Shown here in pieces: positions 7,730 to 45,468 of a DNA stretch of 64,000 nucleotides; positions within the stretch are counted from its first letter, which is position 1; every line of letters begins with the position of its first letter. Source of the DNA: an uncultured Acidobacteriota bacterium (lineage in GTDB: Bacteria > Acidobacteriota > Thermoanaerobaculia > Gp7-AA8); contig CAWGHO010000002.1 of NCBI GenBank assembly GCA_963822445.1, forward strand, positions 2,176,001 through 2,240,000, read 5' to 3'. The notes under the pieces are model-generated. The model made no database searches, was not told the origin of the DNA, and saw only the letters and a list, made by a program, of their open reading frames with translations. The position numbers and the translations under genes were made by a program.

Positions 7730-9154
7730 TCAAAGCGGATTCCAAAGGGACGCCTCGTAGTGGTTATTAGGAATAAAGTTGAGCGTCCAGTCTTGAATAT
7801 CTGTGGGCGCTATCACATGGCCGTCCGCGGATTTACATTCATTCTTGAAGCGCATATCACATTCGACCAAAAAGCCGTTCTTGTGAACCCCGCGCAAGAC
7901 AGGAACACGAGGGAGTTCACGGGCAACGGTAGGATCGGCGACGAGCGCTCCCGCGAATGCGTAGAACTTTCTTTCGTCAGTGGCCGCGTGACGTAAGGCG
8001 GCGGCCGCGAAGTCATTGTAGAGAGATTGGTCATAGCGTGATAATCGAACCCATAGATGCCGTGACACCGTAGGCAAGCCTTGTGTGTAGTCGGCGTACC
8101 AAGCGTCCATCAGCATGACAAGCTCATTGTGGTCGAGAGCGGACGCGTTGTGGGTTGAAAGTGCGTACAGATAGCGTGAGCACCGCTCTAGAACGGTGAG
8201 TAGAACCTGCCGGCTCTCGGAGTCACGCGCCAGACCAAGCACTCGCAGCGGCTCCAATGACTGCGTACGCTTTCGCTCGAGTATGAGCGCGCCGAGACGT
8301 CCCGCGGTTTGGTAGTGCGCGTCATTGCTAATCGTGGCTAGCGATACCAATTCTGTCGCGTCGAGCTGCTCCGAGCGTGTCCACGCCATTACGGCCGCCC
8401 GAACTACGTAAATGTCAGCTTCATCACGAAACTCACGTTCCTTCGATCGGCCAGCGAGTGCATCCCGTACAGCCTGCAAGACGGAGGTGCGATCTGACCC
8501 GTTCCGCGAGTTCATCAAGATCTTGCGACCAATATTCTTAGTAGCGGAATCTGTGGTGTGTTGCACTGTCGCTCGTGCCGCGTCGAGCAGTTCAGCCTCC
8601 GTCTTCGCGGCATCGACGTCGTAATAGGCGCCTGCCCCGAGGTGTGGTGCGTATAGTCCTGAATCGTACAGTAGTAAGGCAACACGCATAGCAGGTGCGG
8701 CGCTCGCTCGGTCGCGAATCGCTTCAGTTAAGGCGGCGATTTCGGCATTCGTCGGTCGCGGGACTACCTTTTCCCTCCAGCCCACACCGCGCTGTCTCTG
8801 AACCAACTGCGTCTGATACTCCCATTTAGAAAGTACGAGCTGGCGACGCGTCCGACCGAGTTCGTCCATGTATACCTTCATGATAGGATCTGATCGCAGG
8901 CGTTCCTGAAGCAGAACGTCGATCCGGCTAGACATTTCACTCGTGGTGCGAATGCCGAAAAGGAGAAGCCCAACGGAGATGGCGGTGATTACGAGTCCCA
9001 GTAGCCAGCACACGAACTTGATGGACGTCCTCTCAAACTCGTAGGTCTTTTGTACAGTTTCCGAAAAAACACTCCAACGGCGTGTGAGTTCCTCATCGAG
9101 ATGCTTGCGAAGCTCCAACTCGAGTCCGGTAGCAGTATCTTTCGTCTCATCCAT
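7730..9154 (-). CDS. Hypothetical single-pass membrane protein
   Basis: ~474-aa ORF filling the cassette; N-terminal TM; AGGAG RBS. Confidence 0.75.
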   Translation of the reverse strand: MDETKDTATGLELELRKHLDEELTRRWSVFSETVQKTYEFERTSIKFVCWLLGLVITAISVGLLLFGIRTTSEMSSRIDVLLQERLRSDPIMKVYMDELGRTRRQLVLSKWEYQTQLVQRQRGVGWREKVVPRPTNAEIAALTEAIRDRASAAPAMRVALLLYDSGLYAPHLGAGAYYDVDAAKTEAELLDAARATVQHTTDSATKNIGRKILMNSRNGSDRTSVLQAVRDALAGRSKEREFRDEADIYVVRAAVMAWTRSEQLDATELVSLATISNDAHYQTAGRLGALILERKRTQSLEPLRVLGLARDSESRQVLLTVLERCSRYLYALSTHNASALDHNELVMLMDAWYADYTQGLPTVSRHLWVRLSRYDQSLYNDFAAAALRHAATDERKFYAFAGALVADPTVARELPRVPVLRGVHKNGFLVECDMRFKNECKSADGHVIAPTDIQDWTLNFIPNNHYEASLWNPL

Positions 9155-9223
9155 GGTCACGGCTCCTATCGTAGGAGTGTCCCGCGCGTACGACTTCCCT
9201 ACCTCCCGAATGAACGCGCCGCG

Positions 9224-24398: not shown

Positions 24399-24597
24399 GC
24401 CTAACTACTGCCAGGAGCTGTCGGCGGGCTGGCTCCGTGGCTCGTCGGCCGAGCCGACTCGGCCGACTCCAACCTGCGCGGCGTCACGCCCGTTGCAGTT
24501 CGCTCCTGCCGTCAAAGGCGTTGGTCGCGGCAACGGCCGCGCCGCTCTGCTGATTGCGCCGGTGAACCCGCCGCAGCTCAGGCGACAGACGTTAGGC
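24399..24597 (+). repeat. attC site 24
   Basis: GCCTAAC...GTTAGGC. Confidence 0.9.
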
Positions 24598-25818: not shown

Positions 25819-26129
25819 TTCCTCCGCGCAGCTGAATCCATCGCCAGGTTGCGGGGCCGCGACCAGCCTGCCCGCACGCGCAGTTGTGCTCCATTCGGCC
25901 CCTTCACACCCGCCCGCCACCCGCGGTAGGCCGAATGGAGCACAACTGCGCTTCACACCCACCCGGCGCATGCTCGTCGCAGCCCTGACGGAGCGCACCA
26001 CCCGCCCGCACGCGACGAACTCCTGAGTGCATCGGTGTCACCGCGGTTGCAGGTCCGCTCCCGCCGACCTGTCGGTGGTCGCGGCAACCGCGGCGCCACC
26101 GATGCGCTCAGGAATTCGCCGCGCTTACA
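25819..26129. ncRNA. Candidate structured element family B, copy 3
   Basis: Same architecture with different stem sequences. Confidence 0.5.
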
Positions 26130-26334
26130 GCCGGCGACCGCTGCTCCCGCCCGTGTCTTTTGGGGCGGCGCTTACATGCGAATCCCATTTTCGGCCGCTG
26201 TCGCTAGGCGGACGAAGGAACATCCGGTCACAGCGCTTCTACCAGATATCGAACATGCAGCTCAGCGCGGTGTAGACTTACCGACGTGCGTACCGTCAAG
26301 ATCGAGACATTACGCGCAAGGCGGAGAACATAGC

Positions 26335-27282
26335 GTGTCTCCAAAACTATCATTCTTCATCAGTTACGCACACGCCGACCGATCACTTGCGGTAGCTATT
26401 GCCGATGAACTTGAGCGTGCTGGTATGCGCGTGTGGGTCGATGAAGGCGAGTTGCGCGCTGGGGATTCGATCGTAGAGCGCATCGCCGATGCTGTCGACC
26501 AGGTAGACTTTGTCGTAGCGCTCGTCACGCGACGCGCTGTAGCCTCGAATTGGTGCAAGAAGGAATTGGCGCTCGCGATACAGGGAGGCTTGCGCGAGGG
26601 CAGCGTCCGATTGTTGCCATTGCGGGTTGACGACGTTGAGATGCCTCCGTCGTTACGTGATCTTTTCCACCTTCATGTCGATTCTCGGAACCCTATGCCC
26701 GTCGTACGTAAGCTCGTCGCCGACGCGTGGTCGCATTTTCGTGAACAGCAGTTGGATTCATGCTTTCTCGGCAGAGTTGTGTCAGTTTTACAACCGACAA
26801 CAACTCTCAGCGCCGAGCGACAGCAAGCACTAAAGCTTGCTCTGCGTAGCAATGACGACGACTACAACTCGGCCGCGCGCGCTGAAAAATTGCTAGCGAA
26901 GGATCTAAGTGTGCCAGCCGCTGAAATTCTTTACGAAGATGCATTGGATGACGCATTAACCGATCGTAACGCTGGCTTCGGCGTATCGGGGCTCGCAAGG
27001 CTTGGTCCGCTGGCCGCGCCGTGGCTGTATCAAATGCTGAGCCATGACGATGATCGTGTCGTCCGTGACGCTTTTGACGCTCTCGCGCATACACGTTCGA
27101 TAATTTTCTCCGATATGCGGGAATACCTGCTGGATACCATCGATGCTATTGTTAAACACGCGGATTGGTCCGCCTGCGCAAAGAGATTGAAAGAGTCGTG
27201 CAGTGACGAAGATAGAACGGACAGGCTAGCGTTCATGCTGGGCTACGCAAGCGACTACCGCAGGAACTTTGCCAAAGGCTAA
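26335..27282 (+). CDS. TIR-domain protein with helical (HEAT-like) C-terminus
   Basis: FFISYAHAD, VWVD and SNWCKKEL motifs; GTG 26335 after GGAG. Confidence 0.85.
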   Translation: MSPKLSFFISYAHADRSLAVAIADELERAGMRVWVDEGELRAGDSIVERIADAVDQVDFVVALVTRRAVASNWCKKELALAIQGGLREGSVRLLPLRVDDVEMPPSLRDLFHLHVDSRNPMPVVRKLVADAWSHFREQQLDSCFLGRVVSVLQPTTTLSAERQQALKLALRSNDDDYNSAARAEKLLAKDLSVPAAEILYEDALDDALTDRNAGFGVSGLARLGPLAAPWLYQMLSHDDDRVVRDAFDALAHTRSIIFSDMREYLLDTIDAIVKHADWSACAKRLKESCSDEDRTDRLAFMLGYASDYRRNFAKG

Positions 27283-27353: not shown

Positions 27354-28289
27354 CTAACTGTTGCGTCTCAGGACGTTGTTCCGATCCAGGCGACTGATGG
27401 GTGGATTGTAAGAGAGCGCGGTATGCGCTCGGTGGTAGTTGTAGAAGTGAAGGTACGGTGCGAGCCAACGGCGCCGTTCCTCGGAGCTGTGGTACGAGAA
27501 CCGATAGGCCCATTCGCGCAGCAGCGTCTGGATGAACCGCTCCGCTTTACCGTTCGTCCGTGGTGTGTACGGCCGGATGCGGACGTGAGTGAGGTTCAGG
27601 CGGCTGCAGGTATCCCGGAAGTCGCGTGAGATGAAGGCCGATCCGTTGTCGGTCATCACCCGCTCGACGATGACATTCCGCTGAGCGAACCACGCCACCG
27701 CCCGAGTCAAAAACGAGCTGGCAGTCTCGCTACGCTCATCTGCCAGGACGTCGACGTAGGAGAGTCGGGTGAAGTCATCCGTCGCGACGTACACGAACTC
27801 GAAGCCCTGCTTCTTTGAGCCAAACGATCGACGCCTGGTGATGCGGTGTCCCACTCGATTGAACCGTCCCAGGCGCTTGATGTCGATGTGCACCAGTTCC
27901 CCCGGACGCTCCTTCTCGTACCGAATTGGCACTGTTGCCGGCTCAAGCTGACGCAACCGAGCCAGCCCTGCTGACCGGCAGATCCGCGCTGCTGTCGACG
28001 CACTCACGCCCACTGCCTGCGCGATCTGTCGCACAGTCCGCCATTCGCGGCGAAGACTCAGAACACGCTGTCGTTTTATGTCGCTCGTGGCCCGGCCCCT
28101 GTGCGGTCTGGAGCTCCGATCGTTAAGCGGCTCGACCCTCAGACCACGACGGATCCACTCCCGCCCTCGCCGGTCACTCATACCGGCGGCCTCCGACGCC
28201 TCGCGCACCGACCATCCTTGTTCGCAGACTCGTTTGACCAGCAGTGCTCGACTCAACGGGCAGCTTCGCGCATTCTTGTGCACGTCCAT
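27354..28289 (-). CDS. IS481-family DDE transposase
   Basis: HKNAR, GELVHIDIK, TDNG and PRTNGKAERF motifs. Confidence 0.95.
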   Translation of the reverse strand: MDVHKNARSCPLSRALLVKRVCEQGWSVREASEAAGMSDRRGREWIRRGLRVEPLNDRSSRPHRGRATSDIKRQRVLSLRREWRTVRQIAQAVGVSASTAARICRSAGLARLRQLEPATVPIRYEKERPGELVHIDIKRLGRFNRVGHRITRRRSFGSKKQGFEFVYVATDDFTRLSYVDVLADERSETASSFLTRAVAWFAQRNVIVERVMTDNGSAFISRDFRDTCSRLNLTHVRIRPYTPRTNGKAERFIQTLLREWAYRFSYHSSEERRRWLAPYLHFYNYHRAHTALSYNPPISRLDRNNVLRRNS

Positions 28290-28392
28290 CTGGGTTCCTT
28301 CCTGTCAACCTGTTCGTTTGAGAGCTTTCAGATTGACGAAAGTCGCCCGGATGGACAACCCGCTTCAAGGAACAACGTCCTGACACATCACA
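27359..28392 (-). mobile_element. IS481-family element copy 1, inserted in attC R''
   Basis: 1034 bp; TGT...ACA inverted repeats; CCTAAC on both sides. Confidence 0.95.
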
Positions 28393-28587: not shown

Positions 28588-28713
28588 CGACCCAAAGACC
28601 CAGACGGGCGCGCGTAACTCACCGTCCGACAGTCGCGAGCAACCTCGATCAAGTGTCTTGAGGGTAGGGGTTTAACCATCTCCAGACACTCCTAGGCGTA
28701 CTACGAGGGGCCA

Positions 28714-29454
28714 ATGCAAACAGCCATCACGGTAGCGCTCATATCTGCCGCCGTCGCTTTATCCTCGGCGGCGTTCGCGTTTTGGGGCCAGGTGAGGTTG
28801 AAGAGACTTTCGTCCGACATCGACGGTCTTCAGGAGCGCGAACGCGAGCGGCGCGACGCCGCGAAGGTGGCCCGCAAGTACCATGAGCCGCTTGCTCGGT
28901 CCGCCTACGATTTCCAAAGCCGCCTGTACAATCTGCTCGGCAAAGATTTTGCCGGTCGTTACCTTGACCGAGGTAACGAGCGCGAGCGCGACTATGCGGT
29001 CTACAACACGGTGTTCTTGATCGCGCAATACTTCGCGTGGACGGAGATCATTCGCATTGCTATTCAGTACGTTGATCTGGGCAGTGACGATCAGACTAGA
29101 CAGTTCGCGCGTCTTCAAGACAAGATCTTCGCGCTTTTCACGACGGACCGATTTCCCTCAGCGTTTCGCGTCTTTGCCGGCGAGCAGCGCGCCCTCGGAG
29201 AGTGGATGATTCGACAGACCGATTTAGGCCCCGAATGTGTCGGTTACGGCACGTTTGTCGAGCGGATGCGGTCAAACGAGGGCACCGACCCGATAGCGAG
29301 GTATCTTGCCGACGACGTGAAACAGTTCGCAAGTGATACGGCGGGTCGGCGGCTCGCGGAAATTCAGAACGCCCTGATCGATCTGCTGGATTTCTTAGAT
29401 CCTGCTTGCGTGCGCTTCGACAAAATGAATAGAACGAAGATCCCGGCGGCCTAA
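28714..29454 (+). CDS. Hypothetical protein with N-terminal TM anchor
   Basis: 246 aa; stop codon lies in GCCTAAC. Confidence 0.8.
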   Translation: MQTAITVALISAAVALSSAAFAFWGQVRLKRLSSDIDGLQERERERRDAAKVARKYHEPLARSAYDFQSRLYNLLGKDFAGRYLDRGNERERDYAVYNTVFLIAQYFAWTEIIRIAIQYVDLGSDDQTRQFARLQDKIFALFTTDRFPSAFRVFAGEQRALGEWMIRQTDLGPECVGYGTFVERMRSNEGTDPIARYLADDVKQFASDTAGRRLAEIQNALIDLLDFLDPACVRFDKMNRTKIPAA

Positions 29455-29645
29455 CGTCTGTCGCCTGAGCTGCGGCGGGTTCACCGACGCAAACGGCAGA
29501 GCGGCGCGGCCGTTGCCGCGACCAACGCCTTTTCAGGCAGGAGCGACCTGCAACGGACGTGACGCCGCGCAGGTTGGAGTCGGCCGAGTCGGCTCGGCCG
29601 ACGGGCCACGAAGACAGCCCGCCGACAGCTCCTGGCAGTAGTTAG
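29449..29645 (-). repeat. attC site 27, inverted (IS1595 element at its R'')
   Basis: Reverse complement of the CTAACTACTGCCAGG...GGCGACAGACGTTAGGC consensus. Confidence 0.9.
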
Positions 29646-29706
29646 GGCATCAATATACTTGCCTCACCTGTCGAGAGACGGTAGGATGCTGTAACAGTCC
29701 TAATCC

Positions 29707-30633
29707 ATGGCCGATAAGCCTTTGGTTCACCCGCTCTCGCGGTCGCAGTTCTATGCCGAATGCCTCCGGCACGCGACCACCGGCGCATGGGGTTGGATAG
29801 GCAACGTGTCCACCGTGATGGCACTCGCTCTACCGCTAGTGAAGTCGTTGTGGCCGAAGGCTTACGCGCAAGCCGCTGCCCTGCTGGCGTCTATGCGTCT
29901 GGGCGAGGAGTTGCTCTGGATCTTTCCGATGTCGGCAGGTGCGCTGATTTTGGTGGCTCGGTTCCTTACGGCTGGCTTTCTCATTTATTCCAACAAGCCA
30001 GCGGGCGTGGCATCGGTGGCCCCGCCAAAACCGAAGGTGAAATTGCAGGCGCATCGCTATCAAGTGAAGGTAGAAACAAGTCACTTGTCTCCGATTCTGC
30101 AGCGCGTTGTTAAGGGCACTTTTTATACCACCGCAATTCGTGGTCATAATTTCGGAGAAGCGGACGCGGTCAACGTGCGAGCCGTTATCGCGATTCCGCA
30201 TACTGACTACACCATGGACGTAGCTATAGACCAAGTAGGGCGAACGGAGCCGGTCAAGGCTGAAGTTGACCTTCTCGTCGCTGGCAAGCCATGGAAGGGT
30301 TCCACGACGGACAACATAACTGCTTTTTTGCGGGAGGCGCGGACGCAGTCTTTCAAGAATGCCGAAGCGCACCAGAATCAAACCGCAAAAGGCGGCGGAG
30401 AAGAAAGCGCTGAAGCGCTACAGATCAGCCGAGATGCAGTCTACGCTGTAGCTGGGCAGGAAGAGATCGGCTCGAATCTGGTCGTTGAGTTCGAGGCTAC
30501 GTATGCTGACTTTGAGGGTGCACCATTCAGTAAGCGGCACGTGTTGACGTTTACGCCGAAAGGGAAGCTGACGATTACTCTCGATCAGAAATCGGCGGCA
30601 GCGCCTGTTCCCGGCCCGGAGCGCGCTTCCTAG
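29707..30633 (+). CDS. Passenger hypothetical membrane protein
   Basis: 308 aa; two N-terminal TM segments then a beta-rich domain. Confidence 0.7.
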   Translation: MADKPLVHPLSRSQFYAECLRHATTGAWGWIGNVSTVMALALPLVKSLWPKAYAQAAALLASMRLGEELLWIFPMSAGALILVARFLTAGFLIYSNKPAGVASVAPPKPKVKLQAHRYQVKVETSHLSPILQRVVKGTFYTTAIRGHNFGEADAVNVRAVIAIPHTDYTMDVAIDQVGRTEPVKAEVDLLVAGKPWKGSTTDNITAFLREARTQSFKNAEAHQNQTAKGGGEESAEALQISRDAVYAVAGQEEIGSNLVVEFEATYADFEGAPFSKRHVLTFTPKGKLTITLDQKSAAAPVPGPERAS

Positions 30634-30745
30634 GCTCATGCTTAGCCACGTCCCTCTTATCGACTCGGAACAGCGCGCGCGCGAGCCGCTGGAATCGCTC
30701 CCAGCCTTCGCGGGCTTCGGCCTCGGGAATGGGTTTCTCGTCCAT
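30575..30745 (-). CDS. Small 56-aa passenger ORF (not in ORF track)
   Basis: MDEKPIPEAEAREGWERFQRLARALFRVDK...; TATCAT 6 nt before the ATG. Confidence 0.4.
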   Translation of the reverse strand: MDEKPIPEAEAREGWERFQRLARALFRVDKRDVAKHEPRKRAPGREQALPPISDRE

Positions 30746-30763
30746 GCCGCGATGATACGCCCG

Positions 30764-31048
30764 TCAGTACTCAACCACGAACGTCTCACGCTGCACCGGC
30801 CCGCGACGGGGCTGCATGCGGCTGCGAATGACGGAGCGGTTCTCGTCCACGAAGTCCCGCGCGGCCTGCTCCAGCCGCTCCCGTGCTTCCTCCAGCGTCC
30901 GCCCGTGTACCGAGACTCCGATCAGCTCCTCGACAGTGCCCGTAAAGCCGTCCGCGTCTTCGACGTAGATCGCCGTGAGCATGGCGCGGTATTCGGTGAA
31001 GTCGTGAAGGACCGGCCCGCGCTTGGAACTCTTCCGCTTCGTCGCCAT
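30764..31048 (-). CDS. HicB-like antitoxin-family protein
   Basis: GFTGTVEELIGVSVHGRTLEEARERL; GGAGG RBS. Confidence 0.7.
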   Translation of the reverse strand: MATKRKSSKRGPVLHDFTEYRAMLTAIYVEDADGFTGTVEELIGVSVHGRTLEEARERLEQAARDFVDENRSVIRSRMQPRRGPVQRETFVVEY

Positions 31049-31121
31049 GAGATTCCTCCCGAAGCGACAGGATACTGTCTGTTGCGGGGCAACACAATCG
31101 TGTCCCATCACACCGTACGTG

Positions 31122-31340
31122 ATGGCGTCCGATGCCGCACAGCTTCGCTCCCTCGGGAAGAGAGTCCGCGAGTTACGGAAAGCGCGCGGGTTGAGTCAGG
31201 AGCGGCTCGCGGAACTCGCCGAGGTTCACGAGAACCACATCCGACGAATCGAGGCAGGAACGGCGAATCCGTCCTACCTGGTTCTGCTCAGGATCGCCCG
31301 CGCGCTGGATGTGCGCGCGGGCAAGCTGATCGAAGAGTAA
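31122..31340 (+). CDS. XRE-family HTH regulator
   Basis: LGKRVRELRKARGLSQERLAE...IEAGTANPS. Confidence 0.9.
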   Translation: MASDAAQLRSLGKRVRELRKARGLSQERLAELAEVHENHIRRIEAGTANPSYLVLLRIARALDVRAGKLIEE

Positions 31341-31375
31341 GGCGTGAAGCTATCGCTTACCGCGACGCTGGCGCT

Positions 31376-32368
31376 TCACGCCTGCTCTGCTCGGATCAAA
31401 TCCTTGTAGGTCAGGCGCGCGGTCGGGAACATCGCCATAGCGCGAAGGAAGCGCTGGCTGTCGTCCGTCTTGCGGTTGTTGAACCGGAAGCACTGCTCGT
31501 CCACGTAGGCGGCGAGGTGGTACGGCTCAACGGAAACGTAGGTGCCGGACAACCCGCGCTGAAGCAGCGACCAGAAGTTCTCTACGCCGTTCGTGTGGAC
31601 GTTGCCGTTCACGTATTCGATTTCGTGATTCACGAACTCGTGAAAGAACCGCTCCGCGAAGCGCGGATAGGCATAGCCTTCGTCCGTCATGAGCGTAGAG
31701 CCTTCCTCTACGTGCTCTTCAAGGAACTCGGCACGCGGTTCAACCTGACCGTTAGCGAGGATCTGCGCGCGGACTTCACCGTTACGCTCAAGTACGGCCT
31801 GCACAAGAGTCTTACCGATTGCGCCGCGCATGTTGCGCGCGCCCTTCGCGTCGCTCTCGGCTCGCACCCTCGCCTTCCGCGAGTCGTGCATGTTCTTGAA
31901 CAGGCCGCCGATAAAACACTCGTCAGCTTCCACTATGCCGGACAGCTTTTTGTTAAAGGTCTTCGCTTTGATAGCGGCGCGAATCCTGTGCAGCATAAAC
32001 CACGCGGTTTTCTGGGTTACGCCAAGGCCGCGATGCAGCTCATAGGAGCTAATACCGTTCTTGCAGTTGGTAAGCAGCCAGAAGGCCACAAGCCACTTAG
32101 ACAGGCTAATCGGCGAGTCCTCGAAGATCGTGCCGACGCGAACGGAAAACTGCTTCTTGCAGCTCTTGCACTTCCACAGCTTGCGCGTAGAGATGAAGCT
32201 GTGCTCACTGCCATTGCAGAACGGGCAGAACACGCCGTCAGGCCAGCGGAGTTCAACAGCGAAAGCGTGAGCTACATCACTGTCCGCGAAATAGATCACC
32301 GTCTCTTGAAGAGTGCGCGGGACGTACGGTTCACCGTCTTTGCGCTCAATGACTTTCTTCTTAGGCAT
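31376..32368 (-). CDS. IS1595-family transposase
   Basis: CPFC/CKSC zinc finger; TQKTAWFM, EADE, TDE, NGVENFW and YVDE motifs. Confidence 0.95.
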   Translation of the reverse strand: MPKKKVIERKDGEPYVPRTLQETVIYFADSDVAHAFAVELRWPDGVFCPFCNGSEHSFISTRKLWKCKSCKKQFSVRVGTIFEDSPISLSKWLVAFWLLTNCKNGISSYELHRGLGVTQKTAWFMLHRIRAAIKAKTFNKKLSGIVEADECFIGGLFKNMHDSRKARVRAESDAKGARNMRGAIGKTLVQAVLERNGEVRAQILANGQVEPRAEFLEEHVEEGSTLMTDEGYAYPRFAERFFHEFVNHEIEYVNGNVHTNGVENFWSLLQRGLSGTYVSVEPYHLAAYVDEQCFRFNNRKTDDSQRFLRAMAMFPTARLTYKDLIRAEQA

Positions 32369-32432
32369 ACGGACAATATAGGTCCGTTTTTGGGTGAGTC
32401 AAGTATATTCTTGCCGTAGTTAGGCCGCGGCT

Positions 32433-33083
32433 TTACCTACGCCTGCTGGGAACGCCCGCTCGCGCCATTACACGGAGAATACGGCCGCGTGTGTAACGTT
32501 GGAGAAGCACCGGATATACATGCACGAGAACATTAGCGACACCGAGATAGGTCGCCCAGCCATGCCATTCAATCTGCCAAGCAAACAGCGATGTGACCGT
32601 GCCCACGAGCAACAGCACTACGTGGCTTTTCTCACTGAGCTTGGTGCGTTCTACGAAAGCGGCCGCGTAAGCTCGGTTAGCTATGATTCGGAAGCTAGGT
32701 TGGCGATAGCGACGCCAACGATTTGCCAGGTCGCCGTCAGGGACGAAGTGCCGGAATGCCCTGACACCAATTAGTTCGTAAAGACGCCCGCTCCGCTCGA
32801 ACCCCCGTATCCGAAAATACGCTGGAGGAAGCCACCACGGCGTCAGACAGGTAGCGAACACCAGTATGAACACGACGAGCGATGGGGCCACGTCTCCCGC
32901 AGGATAGTCGAACGGCCGGAGCGGCCCCCAGACATAGAGCCAAAACATCAGAACTGGGGCCAGCCAGCCGCCGGCCATCAGCGCGAACGGTATGACATTC
33001 ACCCCGTCCGTTTCATTCGAAAAGGTGGGTTGCGCAGTAGTGAGCTTCCACGCGACGTGATCCCTCTCGTCGGCTTCGTTCAA
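32433..33083 (-). CDS. CrtO-like acyltransferase-family membrane protein (inverted cassette; start uncertain)
   Basis: YELIGVRAF, TKLSEKSH and YPVLLQRYTRGRI motifs. Confidence 0.65.
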   Translation of the reverse strand: MNEADERDHVAWKLTTAQPTFSNETDGVNVIPFALMAGGWLAPVLMFWLYVWGPLRPFDYPAGDVAPSLVVFILVFATCLTPWWLPPAYFRIRGFERSGRLYELIGVRAFRHFVPDGDLANRWRRYRQPSFRIIANRAYAAAFVERTKLSEKSHVVLLLVGTVTSLFAWQIEWHGWATYLGVANVLVHVYPVLLQRYTRGRILRVMARAGVPSRRR

Positions 33084-33177
33084 GCTCTGCCGTCCATCTC
33101 GATATCTCGCTTCACGGAATGGAAGTGTAGCGGAGACGGCGCGGGGAGGTTGCTTTAGCTGCCCGCTGTTTTCGTCG

Positions 33178-33376
33178 GCCTAACTACTGCCAGGAGCTGT
33201 CGGCGGGCTGGCTCCGTGGCCCGTCGGCCGAGCCGACTCGGCCGACTCCAAGTTGCGCGGCGTCACGGCCGTGGCAGATCGCTCCTGCCTACAAAGGCGT
33301 TGGTCGCGGCAACGGCCGCGCCGCTCTGCTGGTTGCGCCGGTGAACCCGCCGCAGCTCAGGCGATAGACGTTAGGC
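33178..33376 (+). repeat. attC site 28
   Basis: GCCTAAC...GTTAGGC. Confidence 0.9.
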
Positions 33377-33623
33377 CGACGAATGACGATTGGCGTGACG
33401 GCGCGCTTTCCATGAGGCTCCGCGTACCGGGATGCTCGCCGCAAGCCAGATAAACTACCGCGTCAGTTGGAGCGTGTTAGGCCGGCAGACAACACGCGCA
33501 ATGGAATGCCGACTTCGCCCATGCGTCGTCGTACGTAAGCTTGGTCTGAGCACCCTGAACGGTGCAGGGTGCCAGACACGAGTGGTATAACAGGGACACG
33601 ACCGACGACAAAGGAGTTCTGAC

Positions 33624-35839: not shown

Positions 35840-36873
35840 TGTGATGTGTCAGGACGTTGTTCCTTGAAGCGGGTTGTCCATCCGGGCGACTTTCGTCAAT
35901 CTGAAAGCTCTCAAACGAACAGGTTGACAGGAAGGAACCCAGATGGACGTGCACAAGAATGCGCGAAGCTGCCCGTTGAGTCGAGCACTGCTGGTCAAAC
36001 GAGTCTGCGAACAAGGATGGTCGGTGCGCGAGGCGTCGGAGGCCGCCGGTATGAGTGACCGGCGAGGGCGGGAGTGGATCCGTCGTGGTCTGAGGGTCGA
36101 GCCGCTTAACGATCGGAGCTCCAGACCGCACAGGGGCCGGGCCACGAGCGACATAAAACGACAGCGTGTTCTGAGTCTTCGCCGCGAATGGCGGACTGTG
36201 CGACAGATCGCGCAGGCAGTGGGCGTGAGTGCGTCGACAGCAGCGCGGATCTGCCGGTCAGCAGGGCTGGCTCGGTTGCGTCAGCTTGAGCCGGCAACAG
36301 TGCCAATTCGGTACGAGAAGGAGCGTCCGGGGGAACTGGTGCACATCGACATCAAGCGCCTGGGACGGTTCAATCGAGTGGGACACCGCATCACCAGGCG
36401 TCGATCGTTTGGCTCAAAGAAGCAGGGCTTCGAGTTCGTGTACGTCGCGACGGATGACTTCACCCGACTCTCCTACGTCGACGTCCTGGCAGATGAGCGT
36501 AGCGAGACTGCCAGCTCGTTTTTGACTCGGGCGGTGGCGTGGTTCGCTCAGCGGAATGTCATCGTCGAGCGGGTGATGACCGACAACGGATCGGCCTTCA
36601 TCTCACGCGACTTCCGGGATACCTGCAGCCGCCTGAACCTCACTCACGTCCGCATCCGGCCGTACACACCACGGACGAACGGTAAAGCGGAGCGGTTCAT
36701 CCAGACGCTGCTGCGCGAATGGGCCTATCGGTTCTCGTACCACAGCTCCGAGGAACGGCGCCGTTGGCTCGCACCGTACCTTCACTTCTACAACTACCAC
36801 CGAGCGCATACCGCGCTCTCTTACAATCCACCCATCAGTCGCCTGGATCGGAACAACGTCCTGAGACGCAACA
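35840..36873 (+). mobile_element. IS481-family element copy 2, inserted in attC R'
   Basis: 1034 bp; GTTAGG on both sides. Confidence 0.95.
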
Positions 36874-44429: not shown

Positions 44430-45365
44430 CTAACTGTTGCGTCTCAGGACGTTGTTCCGATCCAGGCGACTGATGGGTGGATTGTAAGAGAGCGCGGTAT
44501 GCGCTCGGTGGTAGTTGTAGAAGTGAAGGTACGGTGCGAGCCAACGGCGCCGTTCCTCGGAGCTGTGGTACGAGAACCGATAGGCCCATTCGCGCAGCAG
44601 CGTCTGGATGAACCGCTCCGCTTTACCGTTCGTCCGTGGTGTGTACGGCCGGATGCGGACGTGAGTGAGGTTCAGGCGGCTGCAGGTATCCCGGAAGTCG
44701 CGTGAGATGAAGGCCGATCCGTTGTCGGTCATCACCCGCTCGACGATGACATTCCGCTGAGCGAACCACGCCACCGCCCGAGTCAAAAACGAGCTGGCAG
44801 TCTCGCTACGCTCATCTGCCAGGACGTCGACGTAGGAGAGTCGGGTGAAGTCATCCGTCGCGACGTACACGAACTCGAAGCCCTGCTTCTTTGAGCCAAA
44901 CGATCGACGCCTGGTGATGCGGTGTCCCACTCGATTGAACCGTCCCAGGCGCTTGATGTCGATGTGCACCAGTTCCCCCGGACGCTCCTTCTCGTACCGA
45001 ATTGGCACTGTTGCCGGCTCAAGCTGACGCAACCGAGCCAGCCCTGCTGACCGGCAGATCCGCGCTGCTGTCGACGCACTCACGCCCACTGCCTGCGCGA
45101 TCTGTCGCACAGTCCGCCATTCGCGGCGAAGACTCAGAACACGCTGTCGTTTTATGTCGCTCGTGGCCCGGCCCCTGTGCGGTCTGGAGCTCCGATCGTT
45201 AAGCGGCTCGACCCTCAGACCACGACGGATCCACTCCCGCCCTCGCCGGTCACTCATACCGGCGGCCTCCGACGCCTCGCGCACCGACCATCCTTGTTCG
45301 CAGACTCGCTTGACCAGCAGTGCTCGACTCAACGGGCAGCTTCGCGCATTCTTGTGCACGTCCAT
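44430..45365 (-). CDS. IS481-family DDE transposase
   Basis: Same protein as the other two copies. Confidence 0.95.
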   Translation of the reverse strand: MDVHKNARSCPLSRALLVKRVCEQGWSVREASEAAGMSDRRGREWIRRGLRVEPLNDRSSRPHRGRATSDIKRQRVLSLRREWRTVRQIAQAVGVSASTAARICRSAGLARLRQLEPATVPIRYEKERPGELVHIDIKRLGRFNRVGHRITRRRSFGSKKQGFEFVYVATDDFTRLSYVDVLADERSETASSFLTRAVAWFAQRNVIVERVMTDNGSAFISRDFRDTCSRLNLTHVRIRPYTPRTNGKAERFIQTLLREWAYRFSYHSSEERRRWLAPYLHFYNYHRAHTALSYNPPISRLDRNNVLRRNS

Positions 45366-45468
45366 CTGGGTTCCTTCCTGTCAACCTGTTCGTTTGAGAG
45401 CTTTCAGATTGACGAAAGTCGCCCGGATGGACAACCCGCTTCAAGGAACAACGTCCTGACACATCACA
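44435..45468 (-). mobile_element. IS481-family element copy 3, inserted in attC R''
   Basis: 1034 bp; flanks GCTAAC and CCTAAC (not identical). Confidence 0.95.

Follow-up and report, generated by a model that had tools for sequence, protein, structure and literature searches.

Integrons rely on placing promoterless cassettes in one orientation, and the locus described here raises the question of how one cassette of a large array came to face the other way. The window analysed is a stretch of 64,000 nucleotides (C2:2176001-2240000) from the 6.0 Mb, three-contig genome of an uncultured Acidobacteriota bacterium, and it falls within the array of a chromosomal integron of ∼105 kb. Inside the window a cassette carrying a CrtO-like acyltransferase gene and its recombination site, attC27, lies in reverse between a 246-amino-acid (aa) open reading frame (ORF) and attC28, probably the original site of the cassette holding that ORF. 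Coordinates are those of the window unless a contig is given.

A uniform array with one reversed attC site

With attC28 as query, 66 full-length attC copies were collected and made into a profile, with which the genome was searched using nhmmer. The search gave 87 full-length sites of 192-208 nt in C2:2120565-2226598, all imperfect palindromes bounded by RYYYAAC and GTTRRRY. Eighty-six of these were on the plus strand. The remaining one, attC27, was on the minus strand (29445-29646, E 1.6e-43) and is also full length (model positions 2-203). The integrase gene upstream (C2:2118113-2119048, plus strand) is intact, with a TIGR02249 score of 456.4 bits against a cut-off of 265 and a 321-aa open frame containing no stops. 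The array is that of a large sedentary chromosomal integron with unusually long attC sites. It resembles known integrons of this kind (PMC13108822, PMC11023631, PMC8946536) in its size and uniformity and in attC bottom strands that probably belong to the leading-strand template; it differs from them in its ∼200-nt attC sites, in an intI gene oriented in the same direction as the cassettes and in the one reversed cassette. The attC sites of mobile integrons measure 57-141 nt (PMC12901181).

The normal limits of a cassette in this array were read from a gene-less cassette present in 12 copies. The downstream attC sites of these copies were at least 89% identical to one another (median 92%). The upstream sites, taken over the nine that are not copies of the cassette's own attC, had a median identity of 77%. 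Since the downstream and not the upstream attC is common to the copies, the content moves with its downstream attC and the normal crossover lies in R'. A cassette here is thus content plus downstream attC with crossover in R', as in textbook integrons. The first 9 nt of the cassette were perfectly complementary to its own R'' box in 78 of 79 cassettes, and the R stem was 9 bp instead of 7 in the same proportion (78/79), closed by a conserved G on the R'' side (76 of 83) opposite an A on the R' side (77 of 84). The gene-less cassette itself consists of ∼287 bp of content (78-86% identical) and an attC subtype of its own beginning AACAACTCAC, and some of its copies stand in tandem. In Vibrio arrays, gene-less cassettes can carry promoters (PMC11014356).

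A minus-strand attC may belong to a cassette that is reversed as a whole, or the site alone may have been turned. The ends of the site do not separate the two cases, as a flipped attC also begins RYYYAAC and ends GTTRRRY. Gene direction is weak evidence for cassette orientation, because roughly a dozen forward cassettes of the array carry a minus-strand gene when judged by the longest ORF (for example the 476-aa ORF at 7730-9160). The bases outside the boxes are more informative. Position -10 is G in 76 of 83 native R'' flanks; in cassette starts, +10 is A and +11 is C, each in 77 of 84. A flank score was therefore calculated as log2 odds over 7 positions that tell R'' flanks from cassette starts, built on the other array cassettes with one left out at a time. 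In this leave-one-out setting 81 of 83 native R'' flanks and 82 of 84 native starts were classified correctly.

Taken as an R'' flank, the sequence to the left of attC28 scored -12.0, below all 83 native flanks (lowest -5.3), and it is the reverse complement of a cassette start. The R'' flank of attC27, read on the minus strand after removal of the insertion sequence (IS) described below, scored +17.2 and is a native R'' flank. Read as a plus-strand cassette start, the same bases scored -17.2 (lowest of 84 native starts -0.7) and are not those of a cassette start. The flank of the 246-aa ORF scored +4.4 as a plus-strand R'' flank and is likewise native. From the values of -12.0, +17.2 and +4.4, the whole cassette is reversed and not the attC by itself. 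Reversal of attC alone, with the CrtO-like gene as a backwards gene in a normal forward cassette ending in attC28, could draw on the forward cassettes with minus-strand genes and on the palindromic R'' and R' boxes. It is highly improbable in view of the scores of -17.2 for the sequence following the reversed attC and -12.0 for the left flank of attC28, and of the CrtO-like gene abutting the R'' box with its stop rather than its start.

Anatomy of the reversed unit and the element within it

Sites attC27 and attC28 form a 203-nt inverted repeat with arms at 29444-29646 and 33179-33381. The arms are 93% complementary: they differ at 14 of 203 positions and match without interruption over at most 37 nt. 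The subtype to which both sites belong also takes in those at 24399 and 38792. The unit starts, on the minus strand, at 33184 with GTTAGGCCGAC, which is exact at 33174-33184; allowing at most one mismatch, this motif had 21 matches in the window against 1.17 expected. Both junctions are inside GCCTAAC boxes (29449-29455 and 33178-33184), and removal of the unit restores a single site. When 29455-33183 was excised in silico, the native flank GGCGGCCTAA, in which the 246-aa ORF has its stop codon, was joined to C and the body of attC28. An independent check on this flank was provided by a homologue of the 246-aa ORF (74% at the aa level) on metagenome contig L037. This homologue, too, ends in GGCGGCCTAAC; a forward attC comes immediately after it, and the array around it comprises seven forward attC sites of the same family.

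The original prediction, made from the letters of the window, had described a CrtO-like cassette starting at 33184 on the minus strand and integrated backwards, as a whole, into the R'' box of another attC, with an inverted attC27 of the same subtype as attC28 and a rejoined GCCTAAC upon removal. The profile search, the flank scores and the L037 homologue bear this description out. A single in-place inversion of 29455-33183 was tried and rejected: un-inverting the segment gives GCCTAA joined to TTAGGC and two fused attC bodies.

The same prediction had treated the 3.7-kb unit as one cassette, and this part has to be revised. Of the 3,729 bases in the reversed unit, 2,770 belong to an IS1595-family element. 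With the IS removed, the reversed cassette proper, comprising the CrtO-like gene and attC27, measures 951 bp. Typical of the IS1595 family are short terminal inverted repeats, a target duplication of 8 bp and a DDE transposase that carries a zinc ribbon at its N-terminus. The element was assigned to the family on its DDE_Tnp_IS1595 and Zn_ribbon_IS1595 domains, its inverted repeats and its 8-bp duplication, and differs in being 2.77 kb long with a 308-aa protein, a HicB-like protein and a helix-turn-helix protein as passengers. The terminal inverted repeats are of 22 nt each, at 29646 and (reversed) at 32415, with three differing positions. The element is present in a single copy in the genome. 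Related IS copies from three other genera (G071, G085 and G101; 70-74% identity) had near-identical right termini (...TGCC / ...TACC) followed by divergence, which confirms the right end. These relatives share only the transposase part of ∼1.07 kb and lack the passenger genes (29707-31340), so that the 1.7 kb separating the transposase gene from the left end is passenger DNA.

The 22-nt inverted repeats, the perfect 8-bp duplication and the single copy indicate a simple later insertion. Removal of the IS and one copy of the duplication gave ...GTAGTTAGGCCGCGG..., which contains a perfect attC27 R'' box on the minus strand, placed 7 nt past the stop of the CrtO-like ORF as in ordinary cassettes. 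The reversed unit is an ordinary cassette of normal size that was later struck by an IS. As a result of the insertion the outermost R'' base of attC27 is C in place of G and the R stem is one pair shorter; attC27 may be active even so.

ISs are present in and around the unit, and the inversion could in principle have been made by the IS1595-family element or by recombination between oppositely oriented IS481-family copies at 27359-28392 and 35840-36873. We regard this as the least credible origin of those considered. The IS1595-family element is single-copy with its target duplication intact, so that no rearrangement followed its insertion. Recombination between the IS481-family copies would have reversed five attC sites, four of which are forward. 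The breakpoints are in R boxes and not at IS ends.

The IS481-family element is 1,034 bp long (LZ_Tnp_IS481 3.9e-17; rve) and occurs four times in the genome, the copies being 99.9-100% identical. Each copy interrupts an attC R box (R'' in three cases, R' in one) at its GTTAG(G/C) core, in constant orientation to the motif and with the core repeated on both sides. This element appears to target attC sites. Its copies are listed with the other features in Table 1.

Table 1. Features of the reversed cassette, its surroundings and the repeated elements of the array (window coordinates unless a contig is given; a slash within a sequence marks the point of joining)
Feature	Position	Strand	Remarks
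246-aa ORF, resident cassette	28714..29454	+	Stop inside R'' box GCCTAAC (29449-29455); no Pfam family
Left junction	29445..29455	+	Resident native R'' flank GGCGGCCTAA joined at AA/C (29454/29455) to reverse complement of attC27
attC27 body	29455..29645	-	Only minus-strand attC among 87; same subtype as attC28
Target-site duplication, left copy	29638..29645		GTAGTTAG; 8 bp
IS1595-family element	29646..32415		2,770 bp; 22-nt terminal inverted repeats starting GGCA; sits in R''/spacer edge of attC27
Passenger ORF, 308 aa	29707..30633	+	No Pfam family
56-aa ORF after UPF0150 passenger	30575-30745	-	Open reading frame
Passenger ORF, UPF0150 (HicB-like antitoxin fold)	30764..31111	-	PF21748, 5.5e-07
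Passenger ORF, Cro/C1-type helix-turn-helix	31023..31340	+	HTH_3, 4.1e-15
Transposase, 330 aa	31376..32368	-	IS1595 DDE domain PF12762 8.8e-31; IS1595 zinc ribbon PF12760 3e-15
Target-site duplication, right copy	32416..32423		GTAGTTAG; 8 bp, perfect direct repeat of left copy
attC27 own R'' box and native R'' flank	32419..32436	-	GCCGCGGCCTAAC; split from attC body by IS
CrtO-like acyltransferase ORF, 216 aa	32433..33083	-	Pfam CrtO PF18927, 3.1e-23
Right junction	33171..33184	-	Inverted cassette 5' start GTTAGGCCGACGAA joined at AA/C (33183/33184) to attC28
attC28	33178..33376	+	Proposed target of reversed insertion and proposed original attC of 246-aa ORF cassette
IS481-family copy	27359-28392	-	
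IS481-family copy	35840-36873	+	
IS481-family copy	44435-45468	-	
IS481-family copy	C1:1227004-1228037		
Gene-less cassette copies, attC starts	1972, 2454, 5479, 5956, 6437, 11228, 39277, 47091		Four more upstream of window

Origin of the reversed orientation

The four strand combinations were written out for a circular cassette entering a resident attC. Bottom strand with bottom strand is the normal reaction, and top with top gives a product indistinguishable from it. The cassette top strand with the resident bottom strand predicts a reversed cassette after the resident attC, with converging sites. The cassette bottom strand with the resident top strand, cut at AA/C of R'', predicts exactly the order observed.

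We therefore consider it probable that IntI inserted the circular 951-bp cassette backwards at R'' of attC28. The circle, carrying the CrtO-like gene and attC27, would have used its bottom strand, as is usual, for recombination at its R' box, and its partner would have been AA/C of the attC28 R'' box on the chromosomal top (plus) strand instead of a resident R' box. One reciprocal single-strand exchange would have made the chromosomal plus strand continuous with the cassette bottom strand, and replication would have fixed a product that reads, from left to right, 246-aa ORF with native R'' flank, reversed attC27, reversed CrtO-like gene, reversed cassette start and attC28. The IS1595-family element, with three or four passenger genes, would have entered the R''/spacer edge of attC27 afterwards, duplicating 8 bp. 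The observed product needs a single reciprocal strand exchange and is viable after replication in the same way as a normal insertion (PMC3458562). The anatomy, the junction types and the IS are observed; which enzyme acted, on which strands and in what order belongs to the proposal.

Site attC28 may have taken part as a hairpin folded from the top strand, or in double-stranded form as a core-like site (with GTT on the minus strand), and its sequence fits both. Predicted folds of attC28 had energies of -70.1 (bottom) and -71.8 (top) kcal/mol, with z of -5.8 and -5.7. With dnaA at C2:1338050 and the cumulative GC skew lowest near 1.4 Mb (the skew being weak and noisy), the replication fork should cross the array from left to right, with attC top strands on the lagging-strand template. 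Strands so placed are expected to fold more often, and this orientation is the one conserved among large chromosomal integrons (PMC11023631, PMC8946536). For the double-stranded form, the R'' box of attC28 reads G/TTAGGC on the minus strand, with GTT at 33184-33182 as a perfect G/TT core.

According to Loot and co-workers (bioRxiv 10.1101/2022.09.11.507474), IntI1-3 use the bottom strand of attC to place cassettes in double-stranded sites, on either strand, for which GWT is the sole requirement. Such attG insertion is like the present case in joining a cassette bottom strand to a double-stranded 5'-GWT-3', for which G/TTAGGC is available here. By the definition given there, attG sites are outside att sites, whereas the target here, the R'' box of attC28, belongs to an attC of the array. 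This target mirrors the normal crossover position exactly, which suggests that the R box was recognised and not a bare GWT.

Reversed insertion also has a counterpart in assays of top-strand attC recombination (Nivina et al. 2016, PMC5027507; Bouvier et al. 2009, PMC2727003), with which it shares cleavage at AAC of R'', a cassette facing the wrong way and rarity. Recombination in the wrong orientation was about a thousand-fold or more below the bottom-strand reaction in these assays (PMC5027507), and laboratory top-strand recombination is put at ∼one thousandth of the bottom-strand rate (PMC5027507, PMC13108822). The assays bring the top strand of an incoming attC together with attI, whereas here an incoming bottom strand would have met a resident attC cut at R'', and the event is one of attC with attC in a natural array. 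Top-strand recombination, as the original prediction had put it, therefore holds for the target site attC28 only, where a folded top strand is not required. It does not hold for the cassette, as attC27 would have used its normal R' crossover. For either form of attC28, the cassette's own site would have behaved normally and the error would have been one of partner choice.

It had also been suggested that the head-to-head sites might permit inversion. Inversion by IntI between attC27 and attC28 is unlikely to give a viable product. The bottom strands that would be cut are on opposite DNA strands, so that a single exchange followed by replication would join plus to minus strand and leave a self-complementary product, non-viable under the replicative-resolution model (PMC3458562). 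Only host homologous recombination across the 203-nt arms, with exact runs of up to 37 nt, could flip the interior.

The same arrangement could have arisen without insertion of a cassette, through two independent in-place flips, which we judge unlikely. The array would at first have been normal, with the 246-aa ORF followed by attC27 and the CrtO-like gene followed by attC28. The CrtO content would then have flipped between a 9-11-nt inverted repeat (attC27 R' and attC28 R''), followed by the attC27 body between the R'' and R' of that site, with template switching or hairpin-loop inversion, and not IntI, as the cause. Worked through by hand, the end product is the same in order and junction types as that seen, and a flip of an attC body by itself does occur elsewhere in the genome (C2:54870-54977, described below). 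Two rare events would however be needed in adjacent segments. Swapped flanks, as left by a content flip, were found in none of the other 85 array cassettes, and no further body flip was found among the 86 other array sites. Were the flips ascribed to the integrase, a second strand exchange would be needed, which IntI would not normally carry out (PMC3458562).

An assembly artefact, in which a segment was flipped or mis-joined at repeated attC sequences, is less likely again. The array holds 87 related repeats, the arms are 93% identical and no reads were found. An interior flip between the 203-nt arms would nevertheless leave attC27 inverted, and generating an inverted attC27 would require joins on R-box sequences of 11-14 nt. 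The R' flank GTTAGGCCGCC that a false join requires is absent from every forward attC in the array. The same contigs resolve the four 1,034-bp IS copies in spite of their near-identity, which suggests a long-read assembly, and the IS in the unit is bordered by a clean 8-bp duplication, from which a perfect R'' box with its native flank is recovered.

Several points weigh against reversed insertion at R''. All four R boxes are of the same GGCC type, so that the crossover is placed to the box and not to the nucleotide, and boxes of one type leave the original pairing of attC body and gene without proof. The top and bottom strands of attC28 fold equally well by the energies given above, and in the minimum-energy folds the unpaired bases near the R and L boxes number 5 against 6 between the arms, without the clear bottom-strand asymmetry of model attC sites. 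Two separate flips at short inverted repeats yield the same final arrangement. No sequencing run was listed for 28600-33500, and both junctions are known from the assembly alone. No empty-site allele was found in 40 relatives, where DNA of the 246-aa cassette matched only attC sequence and not the cassette. No second CrtO cassette in normal orientation was found, and the genome search gave no CrtO paralogue. Inverted cassettes in related arrays, which the original prediction had proposed to count, came to none: 0 of 56 attC sites was inverted on 13 contigs of related genomes with at least two sites each, which leaves a single case.

A genus-wide motif search gave, among the matches listed, 44 of attC type on 15 contigs with at least two each and no mixed orientation; several of these contigs overlap the 13-contig set, and the count omits four variant-motif matches that resemble a conserved gene. 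The species-specific attC pattern had one match outside the genome and otherwise none. Most related assemblies end just past intI, and the one contiguous relative has only 3 attC sites. Short-read assemblies break in such arrays, so that reversed sites would be under-sampled. Homologues of the CrtO-like protein were found at 24 loci in other phyla, mostly 52-68% identical, with one weak partial match at 48%. No attC was found beside the 23 of these loci that were scanned (by an R''/R' heuristic run without a positive control) or in the six that were read by eye.

Other reversed sites and what the locus means

The genome contains two further anomalous sites. At C2:54870-54977 a reversed, internally deleted attC of ∼108 nt lies between native plus-strand flanks (flank scores +15.6 and +8.2), and the 9-nt start of the cassette pairs with its R'' box. 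At this site the attC body alone seems to have flipped, for which hairpin-loop inversion, or reversed insertion followed by excision via R'', are possible origins. On contig C3, sites at 1356218-1356410 (minus strand) and 1357220-1357418 (plus strand) form a second attC pair facing away from each other, placed around an antitoxin gene and a gene for a ParE-like toxin (PF05016, 1.4e-05). The pair has a Methyltransf_24 gene on one side and a gene for a 1,130-aa ABC-2-like membrane protein on the other. Its flank scores are compatible with a reversed insertion and also with a body flip, with one misfit in each case.

No precedent for a natural reversed cassette was found in the open full-text literature, subscription journals and supplements being outside the search, and integron researchers stated in 2016 that a wrong-way cassette had never been observed in nature. 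IntegronFinder groups only those attC sites that share a strand (PMC4889954), and a lone reversed site is thereby lost from the array.

Elsewhere in the window, a cassette ORF at 26035-27282 (plus strand) encodes a 415-aa protein with a TIR_2 domain (6.3e-28), and another 415-aa ORF lies upstream of the window at -11857..-10610. The TIR_2 domain is common among anti-phage defence proteins.

The case is one of an ordinary integron and an ordinary cassette joined by a mirror-image reaction. As a natural case with readable junctions, it indicates that the R'' mirror reaction does leave genomic products, and it supplies a concrete pair of sites and their cognate integrase for testing strand choice and a folded against a double-stranded target. 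The reversed attC also makes a long inverted repeat within the array, a possible source of instability. That the orientation control of the integron is measurably leaky, with mirror crossover at R'' as a real but rare natural reaction, is put forward tentatively and with some doubt. If all three anomalies were the work of IntI at R'', ∼200-nt attC sites with top strands on the lagging-strand template would have weak strand selectivity, and reversed cassettes would prove widespread once attC sites are searched on both strands.

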